This document shows positions 5,302 to 53,035 of a stretch of DNA of 64,000 nt, piece by piece (position 1 is the first letter of the stretch; each line of letters starts with the position of its first letter). This DNA is from an uncultured Pseudomonadales bacterium. Its GTDB lineage: Bacteria; Patescibacteriota; Microgenomatia; UBA1400; PJMF01. The notes under the pieces were generated by a model. The model was not told the origin of the DNA. It saw nothing but the letters and a program-made list of their open reading frames with translations, and ran no database searches. The stretch is taken from contig CAZOVA010000002.1 of assembly GCA_964583625.1 (NCBI GenBank), positions 29,452-93,451 of the forward strand. Direction: 5' to 3'. Both the position numbers and the translations under genes were made by a program.

Positions 5302-6249
5302 ATGGGTTTTATGGAAACTAATAAGATTGACAGTGTGATTGTTTTGTTTTTGGAACATTTGGAAGTGGAGCGCAATGTTAGTCGTTTGACCATTCGTAAT
5401 TATCGTCAGTATCTACAGAAACTAGCTGATTGGTTGCAGCGTCGTCAAGTCACTAATATTACTTCTCTAGATTTAGAATTATTGCGCAAATACCGCTTAT
5501 ATCTGAGTAGACTGACTAATGATAAAGGTGAAGTCTTGTCTAAGAAGACTCAAAGTTACTATTTAATTGCTATTAGAAGCCTACTAAAGTGGCTAATAAA
5601 GAATGATGTTCCAGTCTTATCTCCAGACAAAATTGATTTGCCTAAAGCCGAGTCTTTACCCATGAGTTATACTGATGTCGATCATATCTTGAAATTACTT
5701 GAATCTCCAGATATAACTACGACTACGGGCTTAAGAGATCGAGCCCTGATGGAGCTACTTTTTTCTACTGGTTTGCGTGTCAGCGAACTAGCCGCCCTCA
5801 ATCAAGAGCAAATCAATTTAGACGGGGGAGAGTTTGGCGTCATTGGAAAAGGACGCCGACCAAGAGTGGTTTTTTTATCAGACCGGGCCAAGTTTTGGCT
5901 CAGACAATGGTTAGCCAGCCGAAAGGACGAGTGGTCTCCCCTCTTTATTCGTTTTTCCGGAAAGAAGAACTCCAATTTGCAGGATGATGGTCAAGATATG
6001 CGCCTGAGCGTCCGCAGCATTGAGAGAGTAATTGATAAGTATGTGAGAAAAAGCAAGCTCCCAGTGAAGCTTTCACCTCATGGCTTAAGACATTCTTTTG
6101 CTACCGACCTACTGAGCAATGGGGCTAATTTGCGCGATGTCCAGGAGATGTTGGGTCATAAAAGCATCGTTACCACCCAGATTTATACCCATGTCACCAA
6201 GCCACAACTGCGTCAAGCTCACAATAAATTTCATTCTCTGGAAAAATAA
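5302..6249 (+). CDS. xerD: tyrosine site-specific recombinase, XerC/XerD-integrase family
   Basis: N-terminal SAM-like domain (FLEHLEVERNVSRLTIRNYRQYLQKLADWL), LLFSTGLRVSEL, GKGRRPRVVF, HGLRHSFATDLLSNGANLRDVQEMLGHKSIVTTQIYTHV with the catalytic RHR...Y. Start may be the ATG at 5311. Confidence 0.85.
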   Translation: MGFMETNKIDSVIVLFLEHLEVERNVSRLTIRNYRQYLQKLADWLQRRQVTNITSLDLELLRKYRLYLSRLTNDKGEVLSKKTQSYYLIAIRSLLKWLIKNDVPVLSPDKIDLPKAESLPMSYTDVDHILKLLESPDITTTTGLRDRALMELLFSTGLRVSELAALNQEQINLDGGEFGVIGKGRRPRVVFLSDRAKFWLRQWLASRKDEWSPLFIRFSGKKNSNLQDDGQDMRLSVRSIERVIDKYVRKSKLPVKLSPHGLRHSFATDLLSNGANLRDVQEMLGHKSIVTTQIYTHVTKPQLRQAHNKFHSLEK

Positions 6250-10036: not shown

Positions 10037-12055
10037 TTAGATATCTAATCTTGCTAATTTAGCATGGGTTTGAATAAATTTTTTGCGGGGAGCGACCTCG
10101 TCACCCATGAGAACTGAAAAAGTTTTATCCATGAGCGGCACTTCATTGAGAACAATTTTTTTGAGTAAGCGATTTTCTGGATTCATGGTTGTATCCCACA
10201 ATTGTTCGGCGTTCATTTCTCCCAAACCTTTATAACGTTGGATATTAATGGCCGCTTTAGGATTTCTTTCTTTGATTTCTTTGATCAGCTTATCTCTTTC
10301 CTCCTCACTGTAAAGGTAAACGTCTTTTTTTCCATCGGCCACTTTAAAAAGTGGCGGCATAGCTACATAAAGATAACCGCCATTGATAATTTCTGGAAAA
10401 TGTCGATAAAAGAAAGTGAGAATAAGGGTAGTGATATGCTCACCATCAACATCAGCATCAGTCATAATAATAATGCGGTGATAGCGCAATTTTTCAGCGT
10501 TGAAGCTTTCACCGATGCCCGCTCCCAAAGCAATAATGAGGTTTTTTAATTCTTCGGTGTCAATAATTCGATTGAGTCTAGCTCTTTCAGTATTGAGAAT
10601 TTTTCCTCTAAGAGGAAAAATAGCTTGAAACTTTCGATCACGACCTTGTTTGGCACTACCACCAGCACTATCTCCCTCTACCAGATAAATTTCACACTCA
10701 GAAGCCTCTTTACTTTGACAGTCGGCCAATTTTCCTGGTAAGGAACTGCCTTCCAAAACGCCTTTGCGAATGACGGCATCCTTGGCAGCGCGCGCCGCCA
10801 GGCGCGCGCGAGCGGCCAGCATCACTTTATCAATAATCGTTCGGCCAATCTTGGGGTTTTCTTCCAAGAATTCGGCAAAACCATCTTTGAAAACTTGATA
10901 AACAGCGCTTTGCGCTTCGCTATTATTCAATTTTGATTTAGTTTGAGATTCAAATTGCAAATCATTAGCCGGCATTTTGACAAAAACTACCGCCGTTAAA
11001 CCTTCACGTAAATCCTCGCTGGTGAAAGACTCTTTTTCTCGCAAGAGTTTATTTTTTTCAGCATAGTCTTTTAGAACTTTGTTCAAAGCGGTGCGGAAAC
11101 CATTTACATGAGTTCCTCCGTCTGGAGTGTGAATAACATTGACATAAGACTCCATATACTCTGAATAGCTGTCATTGTATTGCAGGGCTATTTCTACACC
11201 AATACTTTTCTTTAAATTTTCATCATGCCAAGAACGACTAAAATAGAAAACATCGTGCAGAGCTTTTTTACTGCGATTGAGATGTTCTACTAGAGAGCGA
11301 ATACCATTTTCAAAATAATAATGACGATTGATTTGCGCAATATTATCAAAAAAATCAAAGTAAATTTTGGCCATTAAATAGGCTCGGTCTTTGATAATTT
11401 CCACTAATTCTTTACTGGAAAAATTGGTGGCTGAGAAAATAGTTTTATCAGGAATAAAGCTAACCAGAGTGCCTGTTTCAGCCGTGATAAGTCCTTGAGA
11501 TTCTTCCGGAAACATAGTGGTAAAGTCTTTTTCTGTAATGACTTTGACGTGATCTAAAATTTTACCTTGTGATAAACCTAAATAATGGTATTTGCCTTCT
11601 CGTTTGACGACCACTCTCATAAGGGCTGATAAAGCATTGACCGCACTACTACCAATACCGTGTAGTCCGCCAGAGGCTTGGTAAGCATTTTCTTCAAATT
11701 TACCACCAGCGTGGAGTTTGGTTAAAACTACTTCCAAAGCAGAAACACCGCTACTATGCAGGTCGACGGGAATACCTCGACCATTGTCGACCACCACAAT
11801 TTCTTCATCGCCCAAAGATTCTGGTTGAGGAATTAGCTTGGCCAATTCTGGTTTAGCCGGCTGATGAAAAAGACGAATAGTTTTTCCAAAGCCACTAATC
11901 GCCTCATCCACAGCATTGTCAAGAATTTCTTTGGTTAAGTGATGCAAACCGTGCGCATCCGTGGAGCCAATATACATCCCTGGTCGCTTACGGACTGGCT
12001 CTAAGCCCTCCAAGACTTTGATCTGGCTAGCTTGATAAGAATTTGTATTGGCCAT
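10037..12055 (-). CDS. gyrB: DNA gyrase subunit B
   Basis: QVLEGLEPVRKRPGMYIGSTD, GHKL ATPase and Toprim motifs (EGDSAGGSAKQGRDR). Likely start is MANTNSY at 12055; the ORF extends to 12085. Confidence 0.95.
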   Translation of the reverse strand: MANTNSYQASQIKVLEGLEPVRKRPGMYIGSTDAHGLHHLTKEILDNAVDEAISGFGKTIRLFHQPAKPELAKLIPQPESLGDEEIVVVDNGRGIPVDLHSSGVSALEVVLTKLHAGGKFEENAYQASGGLHGIGSSAVNALSALMRVVVKREGKYHYLGLSQGKILDHVKVITEKDFTTMFPEESQGLITAETGTLVSFIPDKTIFSATNFSSKELVEIIKDRAYLMAKIYFDFFDNIAQINRHYYFENGIRSLVEHLNRSKKALHDVFYFSRSWHDENLKKSIGVEIALQYNDSYSEYMESYVNVIHTPDGGTHVNGFRTALNKVLKDYAEKNKLLREKESFTSEDLREGLTAVVFVKMPANDLQFESQTKSKLNNSEAQSAVYQVFKDGFAEFLEENPKIGRTIIDKVMLAARARLAARAAKDAVIRKGVLEGSSLPGKLADCQSKEASECEIYLVEGDSAGGSAKQGRDRKFQAIFPLRGKILNTERARLNRIIDTEELKNLIIALGAGIGESFNAEKLRYHRIIIMTDADVDGEHITTLILTFFYRHFPEIINGGYLYVAMPPLFKVADGKKDVYLYSEEERDKLIKEIKERNPKAAINIQRYKGLGEMNAEQLWDTTMNPENRLLKKIVLNEVPLMDKTFSVLMGDEVAPRKKFIQTHAKLARLDI

Positions 12056-12270
12056 AGTGGTGGAGTTTAACATAAAGAAAAACAAAAAGCAAGCAGTGTT
12101 TTATAGTTTGAGGAGCTAAAAAGGCCAAAATGAGCCCTTTTAGGTCGTTTTTTGGCTACTCTTATCTTATAGGATGCTCAGCTAAGAAACCGATAAGTTA
12201 GAAAAACAGTTTTTATTATAAGGACTTTAGCTAAGGATCCTATAATATTAAAAACATTATAAATTATTTT

Positions 12271-12330
12271 AAAAAATATAAAAAAAAGCCTCTCTTTCAA
12301 TCAATTTATGAAAGAAATTAAAAGAGAGGC
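12271..12330 (-). terminator. probable rho-independent terminator downstream of cdsA (minus strand)
   Basis: Inverted repeat agcctctcttt ... aaagagaggct (12288-12330) immediately after the cdsA stop, followed on the minus strand by a T-rich run (plus-strand aaaaaatataaaaaaaa 12271-12287). Confidence 0.4.
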
Positions 12331-12335
12331 TGGGT

Positions 12336-13145
12336 TTAAAAAATAGTTTTTCTTTGACCAATAGTTTGTTCTTGTCTTTTGAGCCATAAGAAAATTAGTA
12401 AAACGAAAACTAGACCAAAAGCGCTGGTTAAGTTGAAAATCAGTGACTGTTCCCAGTTGAATTTATTAAATAATAAATGGAACATTACTAAAATATTAGG
12501 TAAAGTCCAAGAAGCAATTCTGTCAGTCACTCCTCCATGTCCACCTAAAAAGTGGGAATAATCTTTGATCTGCAATTGTCTCTTGAAACTGGAAAAAAGT
12601 AAGTCTCCTTGAACCGCTAAAAGATTAATTAGTAAGGAGAAAATAAGGACAGAAAAAAAGGGAGTGGGAGAAGAAAACAAATCTGCTTTGAGACTAATAG
12701 AAAGATTGAGAGAGTTTTTGAGAACAAGCAAACCAAGAGGAAAAGCGACTAAGCCCGCCACTAAGCCGGCGATAAAACCTTCAATAGTCTTATGCGGAGA
12801 CAAAGCTTTTGCCAGCGGGTGACCCTTTTTTTTGAGCTTTTTTGTCCAAAAACTGCCAAAAAAATAAGCAAAAGTATCATTGATAGAACAAGTCAGCACA
12901 ATCAGTAAAATCAGCCAATAAGTCGTCAGTCTAGCGGTAGCAATGGCAGCGATGAAGCTTAAGAGGACAATGAGGGATGGTTTCCAGAGAATTGAGAGCT
13001 CCCCTTTTCCCTCCAGCTGATTGCTTAGCTCTAGAAAAGAGGCTAGAGTCAGGAAAAAGAAACAGACCATAAAGCTTTCAGGGCTGAGGGCAGCAATCAG
13101 CAAGTAACCAAGAATGAAGAGGCTGAAATAGAAACGGTTTTTCAT
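12336..13145 (-). CDS. cdsA: phosphatidate cytidylyltransferase (CDP-diglyceride synthase)
   Basis: Polytopic membrane protein with the CTP_transf_1 signature GGHGGVTDRIAS. Confidence 0.8.
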   Translation of the reverse strand: MKNRFYFSLFILGYLLIAALSPESFMVCFFFLTLASFLELSNQLEGKGELSILWKPSLIVLLSFIAAIATARLTTYWLILLIVLTCSINDTFAYFFGSFWTKKLKKKGHPLAKALSPHKTIEGFIAGLVAGLVAFPLGLLVLKNSLNLSISLKADLFSSPTPFFSVLIFSLLINLLAVQGDLLFSSFKRQLQIKDYSHFLGGHGGVTDRIASWTLPNILVMFHLLFNKFNWEQSLIFNLTSAFGLVFVLLIFLWLKRQEQTIGQRKTIF

Positions 13146-13314
13146 TAATTTTCCCTCCTAACCGATAAGTTTGAGTTTTGATTCGTCTAGAGAAAAACTA
13201 TATTATTAAAGAGCTATTGGTCAAATTGCAGCCGCAATAATGGCTGCCGACCAAATAATACTCAAGAAGGTGATTATATCAAAGAAAGATAGTTTTTGTT
13301 AGTAAAAGTGATAG

Positions 13315-13581
13315 TTACCAGTTTTTGAGAATGAAAACAAATTTTCCCTTGGGAAAATTGGCTAATTGCGGTAAAAGTGCTTGATAAGTTTTGCGTTTTA
13401 TTTGGTGACGTTGAGAGCTTAAAGGGAAAACTTTTTTCTGAGCAATCAAAGCTATCTGAGCATTGGCTAGTTTTTCATCCAACTGATAGTAGATCAGACC
13501 ATAAGGACTAGGCTTTTTTTTGCTATTGGTGAAGAAATCAGTAGGAATTTGACCTTTTAATTGGTATTTTCGAGGCAACAT
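13315..13581 (-). CDS. hypothetical small protein (possible first gene of the cdsA operon)
   Basis: 88-aa ORF from MLPRKYQ... on the same strand upstream of cdsA. The longer version (to 13695) would overlap pheT. No family recognised; may be spurious. Confidence 0.25.
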   Translation of the reverse strand: MLPRKYQLKGQIPTDFFTNSKKKPSPYGLIYYQLDEKLANAQIALIAQKKVFPLSSQRHQIKRKTYQALLPQLANFPKGKFVFILKNW

Positions 13582-13621
13582 GGGGATGATTATAACAAAC
13601 ATTTGGTTTATAATAAACTTT

Positions 13622-15595
13622 ATGAACATTTTGATTCCAGACTCACTTTTGCGAGAATATTTGCAGACCTCAGCTACAGCAGCTGAAATTGGCAAATTTA
13701 TGTCTTTAGCGAGTGCTAGTGTGGAAAGAATTGAAGAAAAAGAGAAAGAGAAAGTTTATGAGGTAGAAATTACTACCAACCGAGTAGATATGGCTTGCGT
13801 CAGAGGTTTTGCCAGAGAAGCAGCCGTCATTTTACGCCAAGCTGGTTTTGAAGCTTCATTCTCCCCCACTGGCACAGTCGCTTCCTTGGCTTTGGAACAA
13901 TTCAAACCAATTCAAAAATTACCTCTGCCAGAAATTAAAATTGAAACTGATCAGGTGAGAAGGATTATGGCGGTGGTTTTAGACCAACTAGAAGATGCCC
14001 CCACTCCTCCCAAAATGGTGAAACAATTATTAGCTATGGGGGAAAACGAGCACAGTAGTTTAATTGATATTAGCAATTATATTACTCATGAATTAGGTCA
14101 TCCCTGCCATGTTTTTGATTATGACAAAATTATGTCTTTGGGAGGAGAAATCCACATTGTCGTAGCTAAACCAGGGAAAAAATTTATTACTCTTGATGGT
14201 GAAGAGCATCAGACAGTCGGAGGGGAAGTAGTTTTTGAAAGTTCATCAGGAGAAATAATTGATTTACCCGCTATTAAAGGAACGCTAAATACAGCTGTTG
14301 ATCAAAATACCAAAAGAGCCCTTTTCTGGCTAGAAAATCTTCATGCGCCAATAGTTCGTCACGCCAGCCTCAAACATAATATTCGTACTTTGGCGGCCAC
14401 TCTCAACGAAAAAGGAGTAGATCCAGAACTAGCAAGTGAGGTGCTGGCCAAAGGCTTGATCCTTTTTCAGCAACTTTGCCGAGCCCAGGTTGCCAGCGAA
14501 TTCTTTGATTATTATCCTCAACCACTAAAATTGCCCACCATTGATTTAGATTTATCTCTGGTTAATGCCTATCTAGGGGTAAAATTACCACCAGAGCAGA
14601 TTGAAAAAATTCTTTTAGATTTGGATTTCCAATTGCAGAGACAAGAAAATAAAATTTTGGTCACTCCTCCTAGTTTTCGCGCTGCTGATATTAGTGAGGC
14701 GGCCGATATTATTGAGGAAATCGCCAGAGTTTATGGTTATGAAAAATTACCCACAAGCTTAGATTTTCCTTTGAAAATTATCGCCGAACAAGAAGGAGTC
14801 AATTTTCATCTTGAGAATAAAATTAAGCATTATTTAGCTGGTAAAGGGCTGAGCGAAATTTATAGCTATTCAATGGTGGCGGAAGACCAATTTATCGGTG
14901 AAAAACAAAAACTTTTGCGTCTTGCCAATCCTCTAACTGAGCAACTAGTCTGCCTCAGGCAAAAAATTTATCCTTCTTTGTTAGAAATTTATCAAGAAAA
15001 TAAAAACAAGACCGCCAAAACTATTGGTTTATTTGAACTGGCCAAAGTGTACTTTGGCGGTGAAACAGGAGAAAAGGTGACAGAGCAGCTGCATTTAAGT
15101 GTAGTTTTGAACGCCAGTTATCGTCAGGCGCGCGCTATTCTTGAGCAGGTTCTACACTTGGCTTATTTACAAGCAGAGATTGATTCTTCAGGAAAAATAT
15201 TTGTCTTACAAGACCAAGAAAAAGTTCTCTTGGGAGAAATCGGTAATCATCAGTCGGGACTGGTTTTTTTTGAATTAGACTTTGATAAAGTAGCCACTCT
15301 TGCTCGGGCTTATCCTCAATATCAAGCTCTTAGTTCACAGCCAGTGGCGATCGAAGATCTCACTTTTACCTTACCAGAAGAAGTCATAGTTGGTCCTTTG
15401 ATAGAAAAAATGTCTCAAGTTTCTCCTTTGATTAAAACAGTTAGTCTCAAAGATATTTATCAAAGAAATTATACTTTCAACTTTATCTATCAAGGTGAAG
15501 AACGAGCCTTGACAAGTGAAGAGTTAGCTTCAGTCAGAGCTCAAGTAGTGGCTGTCATGGAAGACATGGGATGTCGTTTAATCGGGACGATTTAA
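13622..15595 (+). CDS. pheT: phenylalanine--tRNA ligase beta subunit (short form lacking the N-terminal tRNA-binding domain)
   Basis: B3/B4 motif HPCHVFDYDKI, B5 and class-II-like core, C-terminal FDX-ACB domain (LTFTLPEEV...SEELASVRAQVV). Start assigned to MNILIPDSLLREYL (13622); the ORF opens at 13580. No pheS adjacent. Confidence 0.85.
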   Translation: MNILIPDSLLREYLQTSATAAEIGKFMSLASASVERIEEKEKEKVYEVEITTNRVDMACVRGFAREAAVILRQAGFEASFSPTGTVASLALEQFKPIQKLPLPEIKIETDQVRRIMAVVLDQLEDAPTPPKMVKQLLAMGENEHSSLIDISNYITHELGHPCHVFDYDKIMSLGGEIHIVVAKPGKKFITLDGEEHQTVGGEVVFESSSGEIIDLPAIKGTLNTAVDQNTKRALFWLENLHAPIVRHASLKHNIRTLAATLNEKGVDPELASEVLAKGLILFQQLCRAQVASEFFDYYPQPLKLPTIDLDLSLVNAYLGVKLPPEQIEKILLDLDFQLQRQENKILVTPPSFRAADISEAADIIEEIARVYGYEKLPTSLDFPLKIIAEQEGVNFHLENKIKHYLAGKGLSEIYSYSMVAEDQFIGEKQKLLRLANPLTEQLVCLRQKIYPSLLEIYQENKNKTAKTIGLFELAKVYFGGETGEKVTEQLHLSVVLNASYRQARAILEQVLHLAYLQAEIDSSGKIFVLQDQEKVLLGEIGNHQSGLVFFELDFDKVATLARAYPQYQALSSQPVAIEDLTFTLPEEVIVGPLIEKMSQVSPLIKTVSLKDIYQRNYTFNFIYQGEERALTSEELASVRAQVVAVMEDMGCRLIGTI

Positions 15596-16785
15596 GCCAT
15601 TTTTTATTGAGTACCACTTTGATCAGTGCGAGTTTGAATTTATTTTTGGTTCTTAGTGAACAAGGGGCTTGGATTGATGGTTGGCGAGTAGATTATCTGA
15701 TCCCGAAACTTTTTTTAGCGCAATTTTTTTTGAGTTTCTTTTTACTTGAAGAAGCCTGGTATCAGAGAAAAAAAATTGTCGCTTTTTTACAAAAAAACTT
15801 TCTCTCTTTAAGCTTTTTTATTTTTATATTTGCTTTACAATTAGCTTCCACTGAACAACCATTAATTGGTTTGTGGCAAGCATTGACTTGGTTTTCTATC
15901 TTACTTTTTGCTTTGATTGTCCGTCAAAAAATAAACCGTTCTTCAGTTACTAAGGATTTAGTTTTAAGATTATTTTTTTTAATTATTATTGGTCAAAGTT
16001 TTTTAGCTTTTTGGCAGTTTTTTGGGCAAAAAAACTTTCTCCCCTATCAGTTTTTAGGAGAAAGTAATTTTCAAGCTAGTAGTAATTTGGCAAAATTTCA
16101 CTTCTTTGGTTTGACTAGAATAGCGCCTTACGGCACTATGAGTCATCCCAATATTCTAGCTGGAAGTTTGGCGATTTTGGCCAGTTACTTATGGACACAG
16201 ACACAGGGGCTTAAATGGTGGTCTAAGCGCGCCAAAATCGCCATTTTTTTCACTTGGTTGGTGGTCTTTATGACTCAAAGCTTAAGTGCGTTTTTGTTTT
16301 TAGCAATTTATTTTTTAGACAGGAAAAGACAACAAAAAACCAAAGAAGTTTTTTCTTTCAAAAATAAGAGATTTTTTTTATTTCTTTTACCTCTAATTAT
16401 CTTCCCCCTTTTTTTATATTTGATTTCCTCTTGGGGAACAGAAAGTCTTTCTATCAGTAGACGAGTCAATTTAAATCAAGCAGCTTGGAAAATGTGGCTA
16501 GAGAGGCCTTTTTTTGGAGTTGGCTGGGGGCAATTTACGCTTCACTTAAAAAGATTTTGGCCAGAAAACTTTTTTACTCAGCCAGCCCATAATGTTTTTT
16601 GGTTAGTTTTATCGGAGCTGGGAATTTTAGGGGGCTTATGTTATTTTTTTCTCTTATTAAAACTAATCGTTCAAAAATCAGAAAGAGGTTTTTTTACTTT
16701 CCTCCCCTGGTTTATTTTGCTTGCCCTCGACCATTATTTTTGGACTAGTTTTTGGGGAATACTAGTTTTTTGCCTTTTGTTTTAA
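15571..16785 (+). CDS. O-antigen ligase / Wzy_C-family membrane protein (WaaL/PglL-like)
   Basis: About 10 TM helices and the Wzy_C signature RPFFGVGWGQF...QPAHNVFWLVLSELGILGG in a periplasmic loop. Confidence 0.65.
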   Translation: MSFNRDDLSHFLLSTTLISASLNLFLVLSEQGAWIDGWRVDYLIPKLFLAQFFLSFFLLEEAWYQRKKIVAFLQKNFLSLSFFIFIFALQLASTEQPLIGLWQALTWFSILLFALIVRQKINRSSVTKDLVLRLFFLIIIGQSFLAFWQFFGQKNFLPYQFLGESNFQASSNLAKFHFFGLTRIAPYGTMSHPNILAGSLAILASYLWTQTQGLKWWSKRAKIAIFFTWLVVFMTQSLSAFLFLAIYFLDRKRQQKTKEVFSFKNKRFFLFLLPLIIFPLFLYLISSWGTESLSISRRVNLNQAAWKMWLERPFFGVGWGQFTLHLKRFWPENFFTQPAHNVFWLVLSELGILGGLCYFFLLLKLIVQKSERGFFTFLPWFILLALDHYFWTSFWGILVFCLLF

Positions 16786-16803: not shown

Positions 16804-17301
16804 ATGATTATTATGAATAGTCTTGCTGGTGACTGGCGCAGTTTTGTTAGTGGTGGCAATAAAGAGGCCTTATCTCAGGCAGCACCAGAGGTGAAACCTT
16901 CAGCTACTACGCCAGAACCAGTCAAAGAAGAAAGCTCTTCAGAGGAACAATTGGTTAAAATTAGGGCATTGATTCAAGGAGAAACTCCTAAATTGGCCAG
17001 GGTAGAAGCAACTTCAACTCAAGAAGAGACACCCAACTTGGTAGCTGAGCAAAGACGGTTGATTGGCAACCTTAAGGAACAAAAAAACAATTTAGGCAAA
17101 GATAGTCAATTGGACAGCGCTTCCAAGCAAGAAATCAAACAAATTTTGCTTTCTGCCAGAGAACTACCATCCAAACCAGACGCTCATACTGGAGCTGGCT
17201 GGCTACAAACTTTAGATAGAAAACTGGAGAAGGTTTTTTCTGCCGAGAATAAAAAACAAGCCAGCAAACAGCAAGCTATTGATCTGGCTATTAAGAATTA
17301 A
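16804..17301 (+). CDS. hypothetical acidic, low-complexity protein
   Basis: 165 aa, Ser/Glu/Pro/Thr-rich, no TM segment. Stop is 3 nt before the start of the ATPase gene (operonic). Confidence 0.4.
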   Translation: MIIMNSLAGDWRSFVSGGNKEALSQAAPEVKPSATTPEPVKEESSSEEQLVKIRALIQGETPKLARVEATSTQEETPNLVAEQRRLIGNLKEQKNNLGKDSQLDSASKQEIKQILLSARELPSKPDAHTGAGWLQTLDRKLEKVFSAENKKQASKQQAIDLAIKN

Positions 17302-17304
17302 TTT

Positions 17305-19656
17305 ATGTTAGAAGCAAGTCTAAAAACGGCCGAAAACGATCTTTTCCAAAGATTGACGAGTACTACTACTCTTCTCCTTTGGCTATTACTGGCTATCTTA
17401 CTATCGGTTTCCCTTTGGTATTTCTTTTACTTTTGGTGGAAGAATCGTAGTCGAGAAAAGCAAGCTTTAGATTTTGTTACTCTTTTAATTCGATTACCAA
17501 AAGAAAATGAAGTTAAGATTGAAGCGGCAGAACAAATGTTTAATGCTTTACATGCTTTGAAATTGGAGCAGTGGAAAAGTTTTTTTGAAAGAGAAAAAAG
17601 TTTTACCTTTGAGTTAGTGGCTAAGAAAGAAGACATTGCTTTTTACTTGAGTGTTCCCAAAGACTTAAGAGATTTGGTAGAAAAAAACATTCATGCCGCT
17701 TATCCTGAAGCTGATATTCAATTGACAGCTGAGCCAAACATTTGGACTAAGAACGGCAAAGTAGTTTTCACTCACTTGAAATTGAAAGACGACGATCGCT
17801 ATAGTATCAATACTTTCAAGAATTTGCCCAATGATGGTCTCAATGCTCTTACCTCTGCCCTATCAAAAATGGACAATGAAGATGGAGCTATAGTGCAATA
17901 TTTAATTCAACCAGAAGGAGATAGTTTTAGAAAAAACAGCTTAAAAAGAATTAAACAACAAAAAGAAAAAAATAATGATCAGGAAAAGTCTTTTGAGGCA
18001 GACGGTAAAGAATTGCAGTCAATGGAGGATAAAGTCAGTAAACCCCTCTTTAGAGTGGCAATTCGCATTTGCGTGAACGCTTCTAGTAAAGAGTTGGCCA
18101 ATTCTCATTTGACCAATATTGTTTCTAGTTTTGCTCAATTTAATAGTCTCTATGCCCAATTTGAAAAAAAGACAGTTCTATTAAAACGCTGGTTCATGAC
18201 CAATTTTATTTATCGTTATCCGCCATTTTTTGAACATCAAGGCTTAATTATTCTCAACTCTGAAGAGCTGGCGACTGTTTTTCATCTCCCCAATAAGAGT
18301 GTAGAAACTCACCACATTCGTTTCTTATATGCCAAAAATGCTCCTGCTCCCAGAGAAATTCCGCAAGAGGGTTTATTATTGGGCAAATCTGTTTATCGTG
18401 GTGATGTCAGAAATATTTATATGGATTTAAATGACCGCCGCCGCCATATGTATATTATTGGTAAAACTGGCACTGGTAAATCAGAATTCCTCAAAGAAAT
18501 GATTTTACAAGATATTGAAGCCGGTCACGGAGTTTGCGCCATCGATCCTCACGGAGAATTTGTCGAAGATATTTTACAACTTTTACCTAGTAATCGAGCT
18601 GAAGATGTGATCTATTTTAACCCCTCAGATTTAGATAGACCGATGGGAATGAATATGATGGAAGCTGATACGGAAGAGCAAAAACACTTTGTCGTTAGTA
18701 GCATTATTGGCTTGATGTACAAACTTTATGATCCTCATCGGACAGGAATTATTGGTCCCCGTTTTGAGCATGCGATCAGAAATGCTATGTTGACCATTAT
18801 GTCGCGCAAAGGCTCTACTTTTATTGAGCTGGTTCGAGCTCTCACTGATCAAAAATTTGTTGATGAACTTTTGCCTTTGGTGACTGATCCTATGGTGAGA
18901 CGGTACTGGACAGATCAAATAGCCCAAACTTCCGACTTTCATAAATCTGAAGTTTTAGATTATATCGTTTCCAAGTTTGGTCGTTTTGTTACCAATAAAA
19001 CTATGCGTAATATTATTGGTCAACCTCAGTCAGCTTTTAATTTTCGTCAGGCAATGGATGAAAAGAAAATTATTCTTTGTAATCTTTCTAAGGGAATTTT
19101 GGGGGAAGAAGATGCTAAATTTTTAGGCTTAATTTTAGTGCCCAAAGTTTTGACCGCGGCTATGAGTAGACAAAATATGCCGATGGAGCAAAGACAAGAC
19201 TTTTTCCTTTATGTTGATGAGTTTCAAAATTATGCCACTGAAGACTTTGCTACTATCTTGTCTGAGGCTCGCAAATATCGCCTGAATTTAATTGTAGCCA
19301 ATCAGTATATTAGTCAGATTGATGAGCAGGTAAGAGGAGCAGTTTTTGGTAATGTAGGCACGATGATTAGTTTCCGAGTGGGAGTGAATGATGCGCAATT
19401 TTTACAACATGAATACGCTCCGATTTTTAATGAAACTGATTTAGCCAATATTGAAAAATATCATGTTTATATTAAAACTATTGTGAAAAATGAACCAGTT
19501 CCCCCCTTCTCCATGTCTTTGGAAAAAGATATGGAAGAAGTAGAAGCAAAAATGAATCCAGAGTTGGCTCAAGCAGTTAAAGAGCTAAGTCGGTTGAAAT
19601 ATGGTAAGAGTAAAGCAGAAGTAGAAGCAGAGATCTCTCAAAGAGCTCAGTTATGA
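17305..19656 (+). CDS. membrane-anchored P-loop ATPase of the TraG/VirD4/HerA-VirB4 (DUF87-like) superfamily
   Basis: N-terminal TM (LLLWLLLAILLSVSLWYFFYFWW), Walker A YIIGKTGTGKSEF, AIDPHGEF, Walker B FFLYVDEFQNY, C-terminal ARKYRLNLIVANQYISQ...GNVGTMISFRVG block typical of coupling-protein/HerA ATPases. Confidence 0.55.
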   Translation: MLEASLKTAENDLFQRLTSTTTLLLWLLLAILLSVSLWYFFYFWWKNRSREKQALDFVTLLIRLPKENEVKIEAAEQMFNALHALKLEQWKSFFEREKSFTFELVAKKEDIAFYLSVPKDLRDLVEKNIHAAYPEADIQLTAEPNIWTKNGKVVFTHLKLKDDDRYSINTFKNLPNDGLNALTSALSKMDNEDGAIVQYLIQPEGDSFRKNSLKRIKQQKEKNNDQEKSFEADGKELQSMEDKVSKPLFRVAIRICVNASSKELANSHLTNIVSSFAQFNSLYAQFEKKTVLLKRWFMTNFIYRYPPFFEHQGLIILNSEELATVFHLPNKSVETHHIRFLYAKNAPAPREIPQEGLLLGKSVYRGDVRNIYMDLNDRRRHMYIIGKTGTGKSEFLKEMILQDIEAGHGVCAIDPHGEFVEDILQLLPSNRAEDVIYFNPSDLDRPMGMNMMEADTEEQKHFVVSSIIGLMYKLYDPHRTGIIGPRFEHAIRNAMLTIMSRKGSTFIELVRALTDQKFVDELLPLVTDPMVRRYWTDQIAQTSDFHKSEVLDYIVSKFGRFVTNKTMRNIIGQPQSAFNFRQAMDEKKIILCNLSKGILGEEDAKFLGLILVPKVLTAAMSRQNMPMEQRQDFFLYVDEFQNYATEDFATILSEARKYRLNLIVANQYISQIDEQVRGAVFGNVGTMISFRVGVNDAQFLQHEYAPIFNETDLANIEKYHVYIKTIVKNEPVPPFSMSLEKDMEEVEAKMNPELAQAVKELSRLKYGKSKAEVEAEISQRAQL

Positions 19657-21381: not shown

Positions 21382-22317
21382 ATGCCTAAAACTAGAAAAG
21401 ATTATTATAAAGTAGCTATTGTGGGAGCAGGCAAAGTGGGAATGACTTCGGCCTATGCCCTTTTGCTTTCAGGAGTGGCTCACGAAATCATTTTATTTGG
21501 TCGCGATGTCAGTAAACTTTTAGGTGAAAAGTTGGATTTAGAGCACGCGATGGCCTTGACCAATAAAACAAAAATCACTGCCAGTGATGATTTTAATGAT
21601 CTCGCAGAAAGCGATGTGGTAGTTTTTAGTGCGGGTGCTGCCCAAGAACCGGGAGAGACTCGTTTACAGTTGGCAGAAAAAAACTTAGCTATTTTAGAGA
21701 AAATGCTTCCCCCGATTATGGCAGCTGCTCCTCAAGCGGTAGTTTTAATCGTTACCAATCCAGTGGATATTTTGACTTATCGCGCTCAAGAAATTATTGG
21801 TACGCCAGTCGGTCAAATTTTTGGGTCGGGAACAACTCTAGACACCGCTAGATTTCGTTTTCATTTGAGTGAATTTCTCAATGTCAATCCTCGAAGTATC
21901 CACACCTATGTTTTAGGAGAGCATGGCGACAGTAGTTTTCCGCTGATTTCCAGTGCTAGTATCGGCGGGCAGAGCCTCAGTAGTTTCCCTGGTTTCTCTT
22001 TGGAGAAAACCCAAACAGCCTATCAGAGGGCGCGGGAGGCAGCTTATGAAATCATCAATAGTAAAGGAGCAACTTTTTATGGCATTGGAGCAGCGGTGAC
22101 AACAATTGTCAAGGCAGTTATTAGGCAAGCGCAAACAGTTTTGCCTGTTAGTTTGCCAGTTTCAGACTATTATGGCGTCAATAATGTGGCTTTATCCTTG
22201 CCAGCGATTATTGGTCGAGGAGGAGTGCAGCAGGTGATTCACCCTAGTTTGGATGAAAAAGAGCAAGCCCAGTTACAGCAAAGCGCCGCTAGTTTACAAA
22301 GTTATTTAACTAGGTAA
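21382..22317 (+). CDS. ldh: L-lactate dehydrogenase
   Basis: VAIVGAGKVGMTSAY, IVTNPVDILTY, GEHGDSSFP. Gln in the substrate-specificity position (GAAQEPGETR) favours LDH over MDH. Confidence 0.8.
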   Translation: MPKTRKDYYKVAIVGAGKVGMTSAYALLLSGVAHEIILFGRDVSKLLGEKLDLEHAMALTNKTKITASDDFNDLAESDVVVFSAGAAQEPGETRLQLAEKNLAILEKMLPPIMAAAPQAVVLIVTNPVDILTYRAQEIIGTPVGQIFGSGTTLDTARFRFHLSEFLNVNPRSIHTYVLGEHGDSSFPLISSASIGGQSLSSFPGFSLEKTQTAYQRAREAAYEIINSKGATFYGIGAAVTTIVKAVIRQAQTVLPVSLPVSDYYGVNNVALSLPAIIGRGGVQQVIHPSLDEKEQAQLQQSAASLQSYLTR

Positions 22318-25307: not shown

Positions 25308-26198
25308 CTATTCTGTAGTAGGAACGGGCGTTGGAGAAACAGGTGGAGAGGAAGGAAGACCCTCCCCTTCTCGAGCAGCCTCCTGATTTTCAGTTTCCAT
25401 TGTTTGAAGAACATTACTACTGAAGATATCAGCCTTACCGCCAATTAAATCTTTTTGATCTAAAATATCCAAACGAGGAATAACAAAATCTTCCAGTCGC
25501 TCCAAAGTTTCTTTCTCTTTGTCTCCAAAAACAGGTAAGTCTTCTCCTAAGCTAGCAACTAGATTGGGCGTGTAATAATGGGTCATGATTTCTATTTTTG
25601 CTCGAGCATGTCCTTGTAAACTATTACTGATTTCTACAAAAGCAATACTGCTTAAAGGAGCAGTCTTTTCCAAACGATGAAGAAACTGAGTTAACTGATC
25701 ATAACTGCCTCTAGCTTCGATAAAAATAGTAAAACCTTGATTTTGTTGAGCATTGAGACTTCTAGCCACGGCAGTGATCGGTCTTCCAGTGGAAAATTGA
25801 GCTGAGGGAGTAGCAATTAATCCTGGAGAGTATTCAAAGCGATCAAAAGTTACTTTCTGTTCATTACCTAGCTGAGTCAAAGCATGTAAAATAGCTAAAA
25901 AGGGGTTGTTGTCATAAAGAATCTGATCTACTTTCTCTATCTGAGCCAAATCAATGTCTTGAGCTAAATTTTGTATTCTGATGAACTTATCATTCAAGTT
26001 TTGCAAAGCAATTTCTTCTTCCTTGATCTGATTTTTTTGGTTGAAAAAACCATTCACCTTGGGCATGATGCCAAAAAAGAGCAAAGCTAATAAACCAATA
26101 AACAAAAAGAGAGATATGAGGAGATAACCTCGGTGACCGATAGTTTTTAGTTCAGCACTTAAGTCTTGAGTTTGTTGTTTTAAGTTTTTTATTGCCAT
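25308..26198 (-). CDS. pilO: type IV pilus assembly protein PilO-like
   Basis: Single N-terminal TM, coiled-coil, periplasmic domain, Pro-rich C-terminus. Position after pilM-pilN. Confidence 0.55.
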   Translation of the reverse strand: MAIKNLKQQTQDLSAELKTIGHRGYLLISLFLFIGLLALLFFGIMPKVNGFFNQKNQIKEEEIALQNLNDKFIRIQNLAQDIDLAQIEKVDQILYDNNPFLAILHALTQLGNEQKVTFDRFEYSPGLIATPSAQFSTGRPITAVARSLNAQQNQGFTIFIEARGSYDQLTQFLHRLEKTAPLSSIAFVEISNSLQGHARAKIEIMTHYYTPNLVASLGEDLPVFGDKEKETLERLEDFVIPRLDILDQKDLIGGKADIFSSNVLQTMETENQEAAREGEGLPSSPPVSPTPVPTTE

Positions 26199-26202
26199 AA
26201 AT

Positions 26203-26748
26203 TTATAACTTCAAATCCACATCTAAGGTATAGGTGCCATCACCTGAGCGACTGAGAGATAACAACTCTACTTGTTGATATTGTTGGCGAAATTCTTCTG
26301 CTTGAACTAGAGCAAAAAGCTCCTTAAGAGAAAAAACACTATTACAGGTAAGCGTGAGTTCGATGCTGGTGAGATAATAGTCATAAATGCTTTTGCGAAT
26401 CGCCACGTTCTGAGTAGTGAAATACTCAAAGGTTTGAATTAGTGATTGCGTGCCATGAGTTTGCTTAGTCAAAATTTCATCAGTTTTTTGCAATTTACTA
26501 TGAAAAGAAAGATATCTTCTTTCCTGTTTATCTCCATCAAGCAAAGCTTGTTCAATTCTTTGTTGCTCATTGGCTAAAGCAGCTAGTTTCTTTTTGTAGT
26601 AATTTTCTACTACTAGCAAAGCAATAAAAATTAAGACGACAATCGTCGTAAAAATAGCAATGAAAAAGAAAGACTTCTTATCACTCTGATCTCGTGATTC
26701 TAAAAGACTTTTATTTTGGTGAAGAAAATTAATTTCTCTTTGGCTCAT
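26203..26748 (-). CDS. pilN: type IV pilus assembly protein PilN
   Basis: Short cytoplasmic N-terminus (EINFL), one TM, periplasmic domain. Immediately downstream of pilM. Confidence 0.6.
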   Translation of the reverse strand: MSQREINFLHQNKSLLESRDQSDKKSFFFIAIFTTIVVLIFIALLVVENYYKKKLAALANEQQRIEQALLDGDKQERRYLSFHSKLQKTDEILTKQTHGTQSLIQTFEYFTTQNVAIRKSIYDYYLTSIELTLTCNSVFSLKELFALVQAEEFRQQYQQVELLSLSRSGDGTYTLDVDLKL

Positions 26749-26761
26749 AAATTAAATACGC

Positions 26762-27778
26762 TTACTTTTTCTTAGCTAATCCAACGGCAATAGGATATAA
26801 AAGGTGATCTTTTTCTGGAATATTGCCACCAATATTACTAAAAATACCCAAAGGATTGATCTCTAAGTTGAAATTGACCGCCAAAAGCTCTGGGAAGCCT
26901 GGCATCATTGAGCCGCCACCCGCAAAATAAATATGAGTGATATGACTTAAATTATTTTTACTATTGTAGAAAGCCACAGTATTTTTAATATCACTGATAA
27001 TCATTTGAGCGATTGGCTCAATCGCTTTGGCGATTTTGCCGTCGAAATGTCTTTTGTCAATACCATAAGCTTTTTTGTATTCTTCCGCTTTATCTCTAGG
27101 GAGATTAAAAGCTGTCATGAGAGACTTAGTAATCATTTCGCTTCCATTTTGGTGGGCAATGGATAAGTTGAGTTCATTGTTTTTCACAATGGCTAAATCC
27201 AAACCACTAGCGCCAAAATTGATCACCATTTGGGTTGATTCTCCAGTTTGTTGGGGTAAATGACGCAAAGTAGAGATAGTCTCAGTTTCTAATAAACTAG
27301 GCTCAACTCCCGCAATTTTGCAAGCAGCCAAAAGATGGTCAAGGTTTTGTCGATGAATACCAATCAGAAGAACCCTCATATTAGTAACCGCTTCATCTTT
27401 TTTTTCTGGACGAAATAAGACCTGATAACTAAGAACTAAATCTTCTTTGGGAATAGGAATATATTGTTGGGCTTGCCACTGGATAGAGGTGGCCAACTCA
27501 ACATCAGTCAGGGTAGGGATATCGATAATTTGCGTAGAAGTGAGTTTTTCTGGCATAGCCAAGCGCAAACCAATGCGTGGCAGTTTATGTTGAGTGAAAA
27601 TATCTTCTAGATAACTAGCAAAAGCCGCTACTTGCTTTTGATCATTGGGAACAGAAAAACCTAAAACATTTTCTACCACTAAGGTTTTTTCCAATTCTTG
27701 TTTTTTATTAACAATAGCGATTTTAGTTAGGCTACTTCCCAAGTCAAGGCAGGCAGTACTATTTTGACTTTCGAACAT
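26762..27778 (-). CDS. pilM: type IV pilus assembly ATPase-fold protein PilM
   Basis: Actin/FtsA-like fold motifs (CLDLGSSLTKIAIV..., GIDKRHFDG, YFAGGGSMMPGF). Confidence 0.8.
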   Translation of the reverse strand: MFESQNSTACLDLGSSLTKIAIVNKKQELEKTLVVENVLGFSVPNDQKQVAAFASYLEDIFTQHKLPRIGLRLAMPEKLTSTQIIDIPTLTDVELATSIQWQAQQYIPIPKEDLVLSYQVLFRPEKKDEAVTNMRVLLIGIHRQNLDHLLAACKIAGVEPSLLETETISTLRHLPQQTGESTQMVINFGASGLDLAIVKNNELNLSIAHQNGSEMITKSLMTAFNLPRDKAEEYKKAYGIDKRHFDGKIAKAIEPIAQMIISDIKNTVAFYNSKNNLSHITHIYFAGGGSMMPGFPELLAVNFNLEINPLGIFSNIGGNIPEKDHLLYPIAVGLAKKK

Positions 27779-27781
27779 AAT

Positions 27782-28495
27782 TTATCCTCCCTGTTCTATA
27801 CTCAAATTACCCTCACCCGCAAATAAAGCATAATCTAGAACTGAAGGAGCGGCTGGTTCAGTTTGTCTTTGCTCTACCACTCTCACTTGTTCTCCAGTAA
27901 AGTCATCTTTAGCTGCCGAGCGAGTGATGCTGGTTAAGCCAGCAATTCTTAAGTGGGTCCCACTAAAAAGAGCTTTAATTCTTACAATACCGCCCTCAAT
28001 ACCCAAATTTTCATATTTATTTTTATAAGGGCTGGTCCCCACCTCCGAGTTGACATAACCTTCACGATCACAACTGGTGCCATTACCAGTGACGTACTCA
28101 TAACTTAAGAGCTCATTGTTTTTATAGTGACTAATAATCAAGGCTGGGTGTTTTCCATCAACTCCTGGGTCATTACAGTTAACATTGATATTCCAGTCGA
28201 TTTGCGGTAATTTTGAAGTGCCAAGAGCCAGCTCAACCGTTTCCCCAGCACCTAGCTGAATAGTATTGTCACCAGTAATACTGCTAACTGACAATAGAGG
28301 GTTAGCGCCCGAACCTGTTTCTAAACCACCTTCAGCTAAATTGAAGGCTTTACTAGATTCTCGTCTTTCTGCTTCTTGGGCTGCCTCTCTCGTTATCCGA
28401 GTGGAGATGGCCACTCCGATAGCTAAAAGAATAGTAGTTAAAATAACAGCGATCGCGCCAATTTGGGCTTGATGTATACGACGGTTTTTTTGCAT
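27782..28495 (-). CDS. PilX_N-like membrane-anchored pilus-associated protein (putative minor pilin/assembly factor)
   Basis: Basic N-terminus, hydrophobic helix (IGAIAVILTTILLAIGVAI), then ...AFNLAEGGLE resembling the PilX N-terminal domain (AEAGL motif). First gene of the pilMNO cluster. Confidence 0.4.
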   Translation of the reverse strand: MQKNRRIHQAQIGAIAVILTTILLAIGVAISTRITREAAQEAERRESSKAFNLAEGGLETGSGANPLLSVSSITGDNTIQLGAGETVELALGTSKLPQIDWNINVNCNDPGVDGKHPALIISHYKNNELLSYEYVTGNGTSCDREGYVNSEVGTSPYKNKYENLGIEGGIVRIKALFSGTHLRIAGLTSITRSAAKDDFTGEQVRVVEQRQTEPAAPSVLDYALFAGEGNLSIEQGG

Positions 28496-51934: not shown

Positions 51935-51978
51935 AATTTGAAAACAAATTATGATAAAATGAGAAGTGAAAAAATTTT

Positions 51979-53034
51979 ATGAATATTCGTGATATTTTAA
52001 ACAGTTTGGTGGAAAAAAATGGTTCTGATATCCACTTAATTGTCGGCTTACCTCCAATTTTGCGTTTGGATGGTGATTTGATTCCTGTTCCTGGTGTTGG
52101 AGAGATTACCCCAGCAGAAATGGATTTACTACTTGACCCCCTTATGAGTGCCGAACAAAAGCAACTTTTTGCAGACAATAAAGAATGGGATTTTGCCTAT
52201 CAACATGAAGATAAGGGAAGATTTCGTATCAATGTTTATTTAACTAAAGGTAATAAAGCAGCCGCTTTGCGTTTGATTCCTGCTCGAATTAGGACAATTG
52301 AAGAACTGAATTTACCTAAAGTTTTTGAAAAAATGGCCAATAAAAAACAGGGTTTGGTACTAGTGACTGGCCCGACGGGAGAAGGTAAATCAACCTCTTT
52401 GGCGGCTTTAATTGATCGGATTAATAGTCAACGCAATGAACATATTCTAACGATCGAAGATCCTATTGAATTTGTTTACGAGCCAAAAAGAAGTATTATC
52501 TCTCAAAGAGAAATTAATCAAGACACCAAAGATTGGGGTATTGCTTTGCGCAGTGCCTTACGTGAGGACCCAGATGTAGTTTTGGTGGGAGAGCTACGTG
52601 ACTATGAAACGATTGCTTCAGCGATTACGGTGGCGGAAACAGGCCACTTAGTTTTTGGAACTTTGCATACTGCTACCGCGGCCCAAACTATTGACCGGAT
52701 CATTGACGTTTTTCCCTCCCATCAACAAGCTCAAGTACGCCAGCAACTCTCTGCTACGGTTGAGGCAGTTATTTCTCAAAGACTATTGAAGAAAACTGGC
52801 GGTGGACGGATCGCTGCTTTTGAGGTGATGACTGCCAATGCTGCCATTCGCAATCTAATTCGCGAAGGTAAGACCTATCAAATAGATAATGTGATTCAAA
52901 CGACCAGCGCTGAAGGTAATATGTTAATTGAAAGTAGTTTGCTTGATTTAGTACGGCAAAATTTTATTGCTAAGGAAGATGCTTTGCGAACGGCTTTTAG
53001 ACCAGATCAAATGCAGAGACTTTTAGGAGGATAA
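51979..53034 (+). CDS. pilT: type IV pilus retraction ATPase PilT
   Basis: VLVTGPTGEGKSTSLAAL, ILTIEDPIEF, GELRDYETI. Confidence 0.9.
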   Translation: MNIRDILNSLVEKNGSDIHLIVGLPPILRLDGDLIPVPGVGEITPAEMDLLLDPLMSAEQKQLFADNKEWDFAYQHEDKGRFRINVYLTKGNKAAALRLIPARIRTIEELNLPKVFEKMANKKQGLVLVTGPTGEGKSTSLAALIDRINSQRNEHILTIEDPIEFVYEPKRSIISQREINQDTKDWGIALRSALREDPDVVLVGELRDYETIASAITVAETGHLVFGTLHTATAAQTIDRIIDVFPSHQQAQVRQQLSATVEAVISQRLLKKTGGGRIAAFEVMTANAAIRNLIREGKTYQIDNVIQTTSAEGNMLIESSLLDLVRQNFIAKEDALRTAFRPDQMQRLLGG

Positions 53035-53035
53035 G

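Follow-up and report, generated by a model that had tools for sequence, protein, structure and literature searches.

The closest described relatives of the gene reported here come from a survey that covered 3,035 genomes of Patescibacteria (Quinonero-Coronel et al. 2025, Microb Genom, PMC12102498). It recorded 5,713 homologues of VirD4-like type IV coupling proteins (T4CPs) in 2,918 of the genomes, 148 of them near virB4. VirB4 itself was present in 2,417 of the 3,035 genomes, as a clade nested in MPF-FATA. This phylum's type IV secretion system (T4SS) is described as MPF-FATA-like and without a relaxase, relaxases being almost absent, and the survey authors themselves did not rule out exaptation of the T4CPs. 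Here, we analyzed a 64-kb stretch of contig CAZOVA010000002.1 (the window) carrying a gene for a 783-amino-acid (aa) ATPase. Its product is a transmembrane (TM)-anchored member of the TraG/VirD4/HerA superfamily with an intact VirD4/TrwB/DUF87-type P-loop domain. It resembles the survey homologues in phylum, orphan chromosomal placement and VirD4-type profile matches, and belongs among them without essential difference, the subfamily having been matched to the set of 5,713 by description only. With about an even chance of being right, we read it as a core, vertically inherited DUF8128/T4CP-family ATPase, a domesticated coupling-type motor that feeds an envelope channel, most likely a chromosomal T4SS. 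New with respect to the survey are the fold of the N-terminal domain, a conserved small partner gene and plasmid homologues adjacent to relaxases. A preliminary description of this DNA had called the arrangement undescribed, which the survey and its 148 of 5,713 homologues near virB4 supersede.

Functional data come from Southlakia epibionticum ML1, of the class Saccharimonadia, in which the T4SS is essential and its cluster has no recognizable coupling protein (Wang et al. 2023, Cell, PMC10633639). Two orphan ATPases of this organism, SEML1_0142 (1019 aa) and SEML1_0293 (921 aa), are flagged in that study as core, Patescibacteria-enriched families. SEML1_0142 is essential at three of three time points by transposon sequencing (PMC10633639, Table S1), and SEML1_0293 is non-essential. 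The 139-aa hypothetical protein SEML1_0141, encoded 13 nt upstream of SEML1_0142 on the same strand, is also essential. Both ATPases are TM-anchored proteins of 920-1020 aa; their P-loop domain lies at approximately aa 360-800, and their N-domain, some 300 aa long, has no assignment. They differ from the window ATPase in class and in their greater length. Compared by layout and annotation, the pair SEML1_0141/SEML1_0142 is like that of the window, and SEML1_0293 carries the same Pfam trio (PF10412, PF12696 and PF01935) as the window protein. Two candidate links to these proteins were rejected. A locus labeled 'Saccharimonadales' (L075) appears to be wrongly named, its protein being ~80% identical to Levybacteria proteins, and a 1024-aa representative (P0276) comes from candidate division WWE3, with an unrelated PIN/TRAM membrane protein encoded upstream.

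Domain architecture of the ATPase

The preliminary description had assigned the product to the TraG/VirD4/HerA-type ATPases from an N-terminal TM segment and the order of its motifs (Walker A, AIDPHGEF, Walker B and a C-terminal block). All of these were located in the sequence, with one hydrophobic segment at the N terminus, and the assignment is borne out by three Pfam profiles that exceed their gathering scores: PF10412 (TrwB_AAD_bind; 4.4e-9, 36.1 bits against a cut-off of 20.5, aa 373-674), PF01935 (DUF87; 7.9e-9, aa 359-457) and PF12696 (TraG-D_C; 8.8e-5, 22.9 bits against a cut-off of 22, aa 635-701). Two other profiles proposed at the time, PF02534 (T4SS-DNA_transf) and PF05872 (HerA_C), gave no match in the window ATPase, though PF02534 is listed for Levybacteria-type orthologues. 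The NCBIfam VirD4-like CD1115 family aligns over aa 376-691, far under its cut-off. Among VirB4-type profiles, CagE_TrbE_VirB and TraG P-loop of Pfam did not match, and VirB4_plasma of NCBIfam reached the P-loop only (21.8 bits, cut-off 590). In sequence, the C-terminal domain stands nearer to VirD4-type than to VirB4-type profiles. The identity that the preliminary description had named as refuting its reading, a full FtsK translocase, does not apply: FtsK_SpoIIIE (PF01580) scores 22.1 bits, under its cut-off of 24, on the P-loop alone (aa 369-401), and the protein has a single TM helix, with neither a gamma domain nor a multi-TM N terminus. A basic stretch (WWKNRSREK) follows the TM helix, so that by the positive-inside rule the bulk of the ATPase would lie in the cytoplasm.

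The middle domain, formerly said to match nothing recognizable, is Pfam PF26449 (DUF8128) in the precomputed annotation of an identical sequence (P0001: PF26449, PF10412 and PF01935). A search of the N-domain by hidden Markov model profile against solved structures gave no match, and only fold comparison succeeded. The AlphaFold2 model of the whole protein has a predicted local distance difference test score (pLDDT) of 73, with 85-93 in the N-domain. In the Foldseek comparison, it comes closest to full-length TrwK/VirB4 of the R388 T4SS (E 5e-14, ~800 aligned columns), followed by HerA and then TrwB, DotL and Cag-beta, which cover the ATPase half only (TrwB: E ~1e-10 over ~430 columns). As the best matches of the model are to full-length TrwK/VirB4, DUF8128 adopts the fold of the VirB4 N-terminal domain. 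Between Walker A and Walker B, the model places an all-helical insert, whose position, together with the TrwB_AAD_bind match, suggests that it is the equivalent of the TrwB all-alpha domain.

The window ATPase shares with the TrwB/VirD4 proteins (R388 TrwB, PDB 1e9r; DotL; Cag-beta) an N-terminal anchor and a RecA-like nucleotide-binding domain with a predicted helical insert. It differs from them in having one TM helix instead of two and, between this helix and the nucleotide-binding domain, an extra VirB4-like domain of ~270 aa that canonical T4CPs do not have. In addition, sequence similarity is weak past the P-loop (the TrwB sequence in the PDB matches only near the P-loop and Walker B), and no relaxase or T4SS is encoded nearby. 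With VirB4 (TrwK of R388, PDB 7o42/8rtd), it shares the fold of the N-terminal domain. However, it has no VirB4-type profile matches, adjoins none of VirB3, VirB6 and VirB8, and carries its own TM helix, so that it resembles a VirB3-VirB4 fusion. The likeness to HerA is confined to the DUF87 P-loop region: the characteristic HAS-barrel is not present, the N-domain being alpha/beta and VirB4-like instead of a beta-barrel, and no nuclease or Sir2 gene is a neighbor. Similarly, the match to mad8 of the MADS system (PADLOC, 1.7e-17) covers the P-loop domain only, and the neighboring genes have no PADLOC match.

Conservation, mobile relatives and the small partner

The gene had been presented as a solitary curiosity, a view that its distribution contradicts. 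At least 5,732 homologues were retrieved from a large protein database. Each of the best 120 is a full-length protein, 67-100% identical, with PF26449, PF10412 and PF01935. The source names among the homologues include Woesebacteria, Pacebacteria, Microgenomates and Patescibacteria. An exhaustive search of representatives at 50% identity returned 22,349 clusters under a threshold of E<=1e-3 and 5,828 under E<=1e-30, and orthologues occur in at least 590 species-representative genomes. Full-length identity between the window ATPase and hundreds of PF26449 proteins is 56-85%, and DUF8128 is also found in the related WWE3 clade. Hundreds of PF26449 proteins are annotated as 'T4SS DNA-binding domain-containing', 'DUF87' or 'TraM recognition domain'. 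When 46 sequences with full-length identities of 67-85% were aligned, hundreds of columns proved invariant, among them those of the Walker A lysine and of the aspartate and glutamate in Walker B. In the same close relatives, the ATPase is ~70% identical, compared with 76-77% for GyrB, 46-48% for PheT and 59-64% for the short-chain dehydrogenase/reductase (SDR) and LDH. By this comparison, the ATPase is about as conserved as GyrB, and its identity and the spread of the family mark it as a core gene under strong purifying selection. The window gene is one ordinary representative of a very large, vertically conserved, near-universal Patescibacteria family.

Related loci were compared in the 80 best cases, in which the ATPase is 56-79% identical to the window protein. 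Those with credible labels are of Microgenomates type (Woese-, Levy-, Pace-, Gottesman- and Cerribacteria), as is, probably, the source organism of the window. Many Patescibacteria contigs of the species-representative collection (within L005-L084) carry the labels 'uncultured Pseudomonadales', 'Gammaproteobacteria', 'Vitreimonas', 'Methylococcaceae', 'Limisphaerales' or 'Saccharimonadales'. Since the proteins they encode share 56-80% identity with those of Microgenomates/Levybacteria, the names look like errors of taxonomy. The same ATPase domain also occurs in longer fusions, namely P0174 and P0179 (~1450-1510 aa), P0134 and P0141 (1584-2006 aa) and P0155 (1210 aa). Some of them have ~1000 aa of N-terminal tetratricopeptide repeats (TPRs) instead of DUF8128, and others a second P-loop or a long C-terminal extension whose type is not recognized. 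The fusions were considered as a hint to function and set aside, since TPR arrays, extensions and second P-loop were all uninformative.

Distant full-length homologues (21-32% identity) were found on 384 plasmids of Streptomyces, Bacillus, Staphylococcus, Clostridium, haloarchaea and Sulfolobus. Two Bacillus subtilis plasmids have the homologue immediately upstream of a relaxase of the replication-relaxation family. It heads an operon that encodes, besides TcpC/D/E-like proteins, a separate ATPase of ~850 aa that is VirB4/TcpF-like. The window ATPase aligns with the relaxase-adjacent protein over aa 100-740 (26% identity, E 7e-50) and shows no similarity to the VirB4/TcpF-like one (E 0.17). 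From the position of the plasmid homologue beside the relaxase, the ancestral role of the family would be that of a coupling protein in conjugation systems of monoderms. These Tcp-like plasmid DUF87 proteins (e.g., of NZ_OX419581.1 and NZ_CP154917.1) are like the window ATPase in the N-domain, Walker A, DPHGE and Walker B. They differ in length (885-913 aa), in being part of a complete conjugation operon and in having no small partner with the patescibacterial motif. The preliminary idea of a domesticated conjugation-type motor is reasonable in the light of these relatives, without the link to a sugar operon that came with it. Plasmid pLS20 was set aside: gene 48, which encodes its T4CP, specifies a canonical VirD4 with two TM helices, and the matched plasmids are not of the pLS20 family. 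Large Bacillus phages also carry full-length or ATPase-domain homologues, such as gp156 of phage G (JN638751.1, 90952-93081) and gp27.4 of SPO1, which accounts for a match of the window protein to phrog_5156 (5e-89).

Across the 80 loci, the sole conserved neighbor of the ATPase is a small same-strand gene adjoining its start. In 61 loci, the encoded partner has a common C-terminal motif of ~45 aa, with the consensus ...PVVVLPITxEEExxGxKKSPKFSIRWLVEWSRKIIKMFSGKVVYR. Members of this partner family are 140-340 aa long and combine the C-terminal motif (PVVVLPIT...FSIRWLVEWSRKIIKMFSGKVVYR) with a variable, low-complexity N-terminal part (e.g., L010:5135-5911). The partner open reading frame (ORF) always lies directly 5' of the DUF8128 ATPase (L009-L060 and other loci), ending at about locus position 5900-6010. 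A Pfam scan of the partner proteins gave no match.

In the window, this slot is occupied by a 165-aa protein. It had been described as a coupled, acidic, low-complexity protein; coupling, small size and low complexity hold, but overall it is not acidic, with 23 D/E against 24 K/R. It has no match in Pfam, NCBIfam, PADLOC or PHROG. Like its counterparts in the nearest relatives, it ends in a basic amphipathic tryptophan-containing helix (GAGWLQTLDRKLEKVFS), which hhalign places in register with the partner motif, although not significantly (E 0.13-0.22). We therefore regard it as the positional counterpart of the partner and do not claim homology.

Genomic neighborhood

ORF coordinates, the 3-nt gap and the ATGA overlaps were confirmed as previously given, as were the identities of the neighboring Wzy_C, SDR epimerase/dehydratase and pheT genes (Table 1). 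The genes around the ATPase are co-directional, separated by an 18-nt gap, the 3-nt gap and two 4-nt (ATGA) overlaps. The wider window contains gyrA, gyrB, cdsA, rnpA, pheT, ldh, nusB, rnc, rpsP and a pyruvate kinase gene, together with a glycosyltransferase cluster, genes for a Xer-type recombinase and a DNA methylase, and pilM, pilB, pilT and pilC. Its base composition is uniform. Promoter- and terminator-like motifs occur at background frequency, with no enrichment along the gene string, and in the interval 12-24 kb no Rfam family matched. What surrounds the ATPase gene is a compact co-directional string of housekeeping genes and not a dedicated operon.

Table 1. Positions in the window of the ATPase gene, its domains and motifs, and the adjoining genes
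Feature	Position	Strand	Evidence
pheT, upstream	13580-15595		ORF call, annotation
Wzy_C gene, upstream	15571-16785		ORF call, Pfam
165-aa low-complexity protein, small upstream partner slot	16804..17301	+	ORF call, composition; ends 3 nt ahead of ATPase start
783-aa membrane-anchored ATPase: DUF8128 and T4CP-type P-loop domain	17305..19656	+	ORF, profile, conservation and model evidence
Single N-terminal TM helix, aa ~20-45	17362..17439	+	Kyte-Doolittle peak aa 16-45; AlphaFold2 helix aa 2-46
DUF8128 (PF26449) alpha/beta N-domain, aa ~57-330, VirB4 N-terminal-domain fold	17473..18294	+	
FtsK/HerA-superfamily P-loop ATPase domain, T4CP type, aa ~357-740	18373..19524	+	Pfam, NCBIfam, Foldseek
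Walker A, aa 384-395	18454-18489	+	Motif scan
AIDPHGEF (DPHGEF motif), aa 412-419	18538-18561	+	Motif scan
All-helical insert between Walker A and Walker B, aa ~455-585	18667..19059	+	AlphaFold2 helices H457-475 through H580-585, moderate pLDDT
Walker B, aa 633-643	19201-19233	+	Motif scan
ARKYRLNLIVANQYISQ motif (...ANQ), aa 655-671	19267-19317	+	Motif scan
GNVGTMISFRVG, aa 682-693	19348-19383	+	Motif scan
Conserved helical C-terminal tail, aa ~744-783, near-invariant ...LSRLKYGK...	19534..19653	+	Conservation; helices H752-767, H770-782
SDR epimerase/dehydratase, 330 aa	19653-20645		ORF call, Pfam
Hypothetical protein, 239 aa	20642-21361	+	ORF call
ldh	21382-22317		ORF call

The absence of T4SS partners nearby, noted in the preliminary description, also stands. 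No VirB4, VirB6 or relaxase was detectable among the large ORFs of the window, and T4SS genes were found in none of the 80 related loci. No hidden T4SS emerged from the scan of the other large ORFs of the window, which gave only type IV pilus, glycosyltransferase and housekeeping genes. Tight coupling to envelope sugar genes, in contrast, is true of the window lineage and not of others. When synteny was compared in the related loci, the small upstream slot was kept and the sugar genes were not: the SDR gene adjoins the ATPase in 4 of 80 (the four closest relatives), ldh in 4 and Wzy_C in none. Other lineages have DUF192, NagZ, Lgt, MacB-type ABC transporter, major facilitator superfamily (MFS), RNR, Maf or Xer-type recombinase genes as neighbors. 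As the SDR/Wzy_C/ldh adjacency is not kept, the sugar-gene coupling is incidental to the window lineage.

Several other features of the neighborhood were recorded. The 239-aa protein downstream of the SDR gene is charged and translationally coupled to it through the ATGA overlap; it has no match in Pfam, NCBIfam, PADLOC or PHROG, and no homologue was detected in the 80 loci, closest relatives included. In 14 of the 80 loci, which are of Levybacteria type (a subset of L061-L084), a Xer-like tyrosine recombinase gene lies ~0.8 kb 3' of the ATPase (e.g., L064:12081-12941, minus strand). The window has a similar gene at 5302-6249, ~11 kb upstream of the ATPase, which is the nearest recombinase gene. 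Type IV pilus genes are present in two places, with pilM (26762-27778) within 25308-28495 on the minus strand, flanked by three ORFs without Pfam match that are probably pilN/O-like, and pilB, pilT and pilC at 50195-54238 on the plus strand. The glycosyltransferase cluster (42586-46479) comprises two GT4 genes and one of PMT_2 type; beside it and dus, a 612-aa ORF without Pfam match occupies 47507-49345 on the minus strand.

At ~12000-13600, the GC skew changes sign and the genes change strand: gyrA, ppa, gyrB, cdsA and rnpA, to the left, are encoded on the minus strand, and pheT and the genes that follow it, to the right, on the plus strand. The rnpA gene is often located near oriC. Proximity to a replication origin was nevertheless rejected, as DnaA-box-like sites are not enriched (18 found versus 14.7 expected).

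Possible function and competing explanations

As a working model, the ATPase would assemble into a membrane-docked ring, as do TrwB, VirB4 and HerA. ATP hydrolysis would power the recruitment of a macromolecular substrate (protein or DNA) and its delivery to a channel in the envelope. Of such channels, the likeliest is the relaxase-less chromosomal T4SS, encoded elsewhere and near dnaA in most Patescibacteria. The small upstream protein may act as an adaptor, regulator or tether through its conserved C-terminal segment, predicted to be beta-helix-beta, in a role comparable to that of CagZ (8dol), the small regulator encoded adjacent to Cag-beta. The ATPase would thus be a domesticated coupling-type motor serving an epibiotic lifestyle and not the partner of envelope-polysaccharide enzymes.

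A number of observations weigh against this model. We infer the link to a T4SS, no component of which is encoded in the window or the 80 loci, and the T4CP role of the plasmid homologues is read from gene position only. The NCBIfam models for T4CP, like those for VirB4, Ced and HerA, score far under their cut-offs on the ATPase, and the pLDDT of the ATPase domain is only moderate (~50-80). Four rounds of iterated hmmsearch with hhalign gave no significant homology between the 165-aa protein and the partner family. SEML1_0293, the sole S. epibionticum paralogue with the Pfam signature of the window protein, is dispensable although the T4SS is essential, and the window ATPase is not assigned as an orthologue to either SEML1_0142 or SEML1_0293. 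Finally, T4CP homologues are commoner than VirB4 (96% versus 80% of the surveyed genomes, PMC12102498), so that some of them must act without a T4SS.

The last points lead to the main rival, a T4SS-independent envelope translocase in which ATPase and small partner are self-contained and, without the VirB4 machine, move either DNA or protein across the membrane or along it, possibly for DNA uptake or export like the archaeal Ced system or for FtsK-like chromosome handling at division. We consider it somewhat unlikely. Besides the excess of T4CP homologues over VirB4, the 148 of 5,713 near virB4 and the exaptation raised by the survey authors (PMC12102498), it draws on the dispensable S. epibionticum paralogue, on conservation near that of housekeeping genes and on the TM anchor and VirB4-like N-domain, which make the protein resemble a self-sufficient VirB3-VirB4-like unit. 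However, no channel-forming partner is kept beside the ATPase, and the plasmid homologues belong to full conjugation operons. Of the more specific indications, the weak CedD and CedB profile matches cover the P-loop alone, and FtsK_SpoIIIE likewise stays on the P-loop, under its cut-off, with no gamma or multi-TM pore domain in the protein; the Xer-type recombinase downstream in 14 of 80 loci is a minority pattern restricted by lineage. The structural matches to full-length TrwK/VirB4 over ~800 columns could also indicate a second VirB4-like assembly ATPase, or an alternative VirB4, which energizes assembly of a T4SS or VirB2-like pilus instead of recruiting substrates. This would agree with the essential VirB2-like pilins and split TrsD/VirB4 arrangement of the patescibacterial T4SS. 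We find it quite improbable, given that the ATPase domain matches VirD4-type profiles (TrwB_AAD_bind, TraG-D_C and the CD1115 family) and none of VirB4 type, that VirB3, VirB6 and VirB8 are not adjacent, and that clear kinship to the relaxase-adjacent Bacillus plasmid protein goes with no similarity to the VirB4/TcpF-like one.

A motor coupled to envelope polysaccharide synthesis or export, in one operon with Wzy_C and the UDP-sugar SDR, is very improbable and largely refuted by synteny. The co-directional genes with their short gaps and overlaps, and the SDR gene adjacent in the four closest relatives, speak for it, but SDR (4/80), Wzy_C (0/80) and ldh (4/80) are not kept and other lineages have different neighbors. 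Moreover, the string includes pheT, ldh, nusB and rnc, as is typical of compaction in small genomes, and promoter and terminator motifs are not enriched. Least probable of all, and only barely conceivable, is an anti-phage defense component of HerA/mad8 type or the remnant of a mobile element. The PADLOC match to mad8 (1.7e-17), weak matches to HerA models, phrog_5156 (5e-89) and the occurrence of relatives in Bacillus phage G, in SPO1-like phages and on many plasmids all point in that direction. They are set against a syntenic housekeeping context of uniform base composition and GyrB-like conservation across hundreds of species. In addition, no nuclease, Sir2 or methylase partner adjoins the gene, there is no HAS-barrel, and neither integrase nor repeats flank it, the nearest recombinase gene being ~11 kb away.

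Beyond the domesticated coupling-type motor that we favor, a more speculative and rather unlikely proposal is that DUF8128 ATPases form a third branch of the VirB4/VirD4 radiation, with a VirB4-type N-domain and a VirD4-type motor, which together with the small partner became an essential, T4SS-independent translocation module in Patescibacteria. If this were true, SEML1_0141/0142 would be its experimentally accessible example and the window pair the Microgenomates counterpart. Much of uncultivated bacterial diversity belongs to the Patescibacteria, which depend on host cells through poorly understood envelope machines. The question that the family opens is whether these proteins are the coupling ATPase for the relaxase-less patescibacterial T4SS or the motors of a separate essential process. 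The VirB4 fold of the N-domain, the conserved partner and the essential pair of the same layout in the genetically tractable S. epibionticum make this problem testable.

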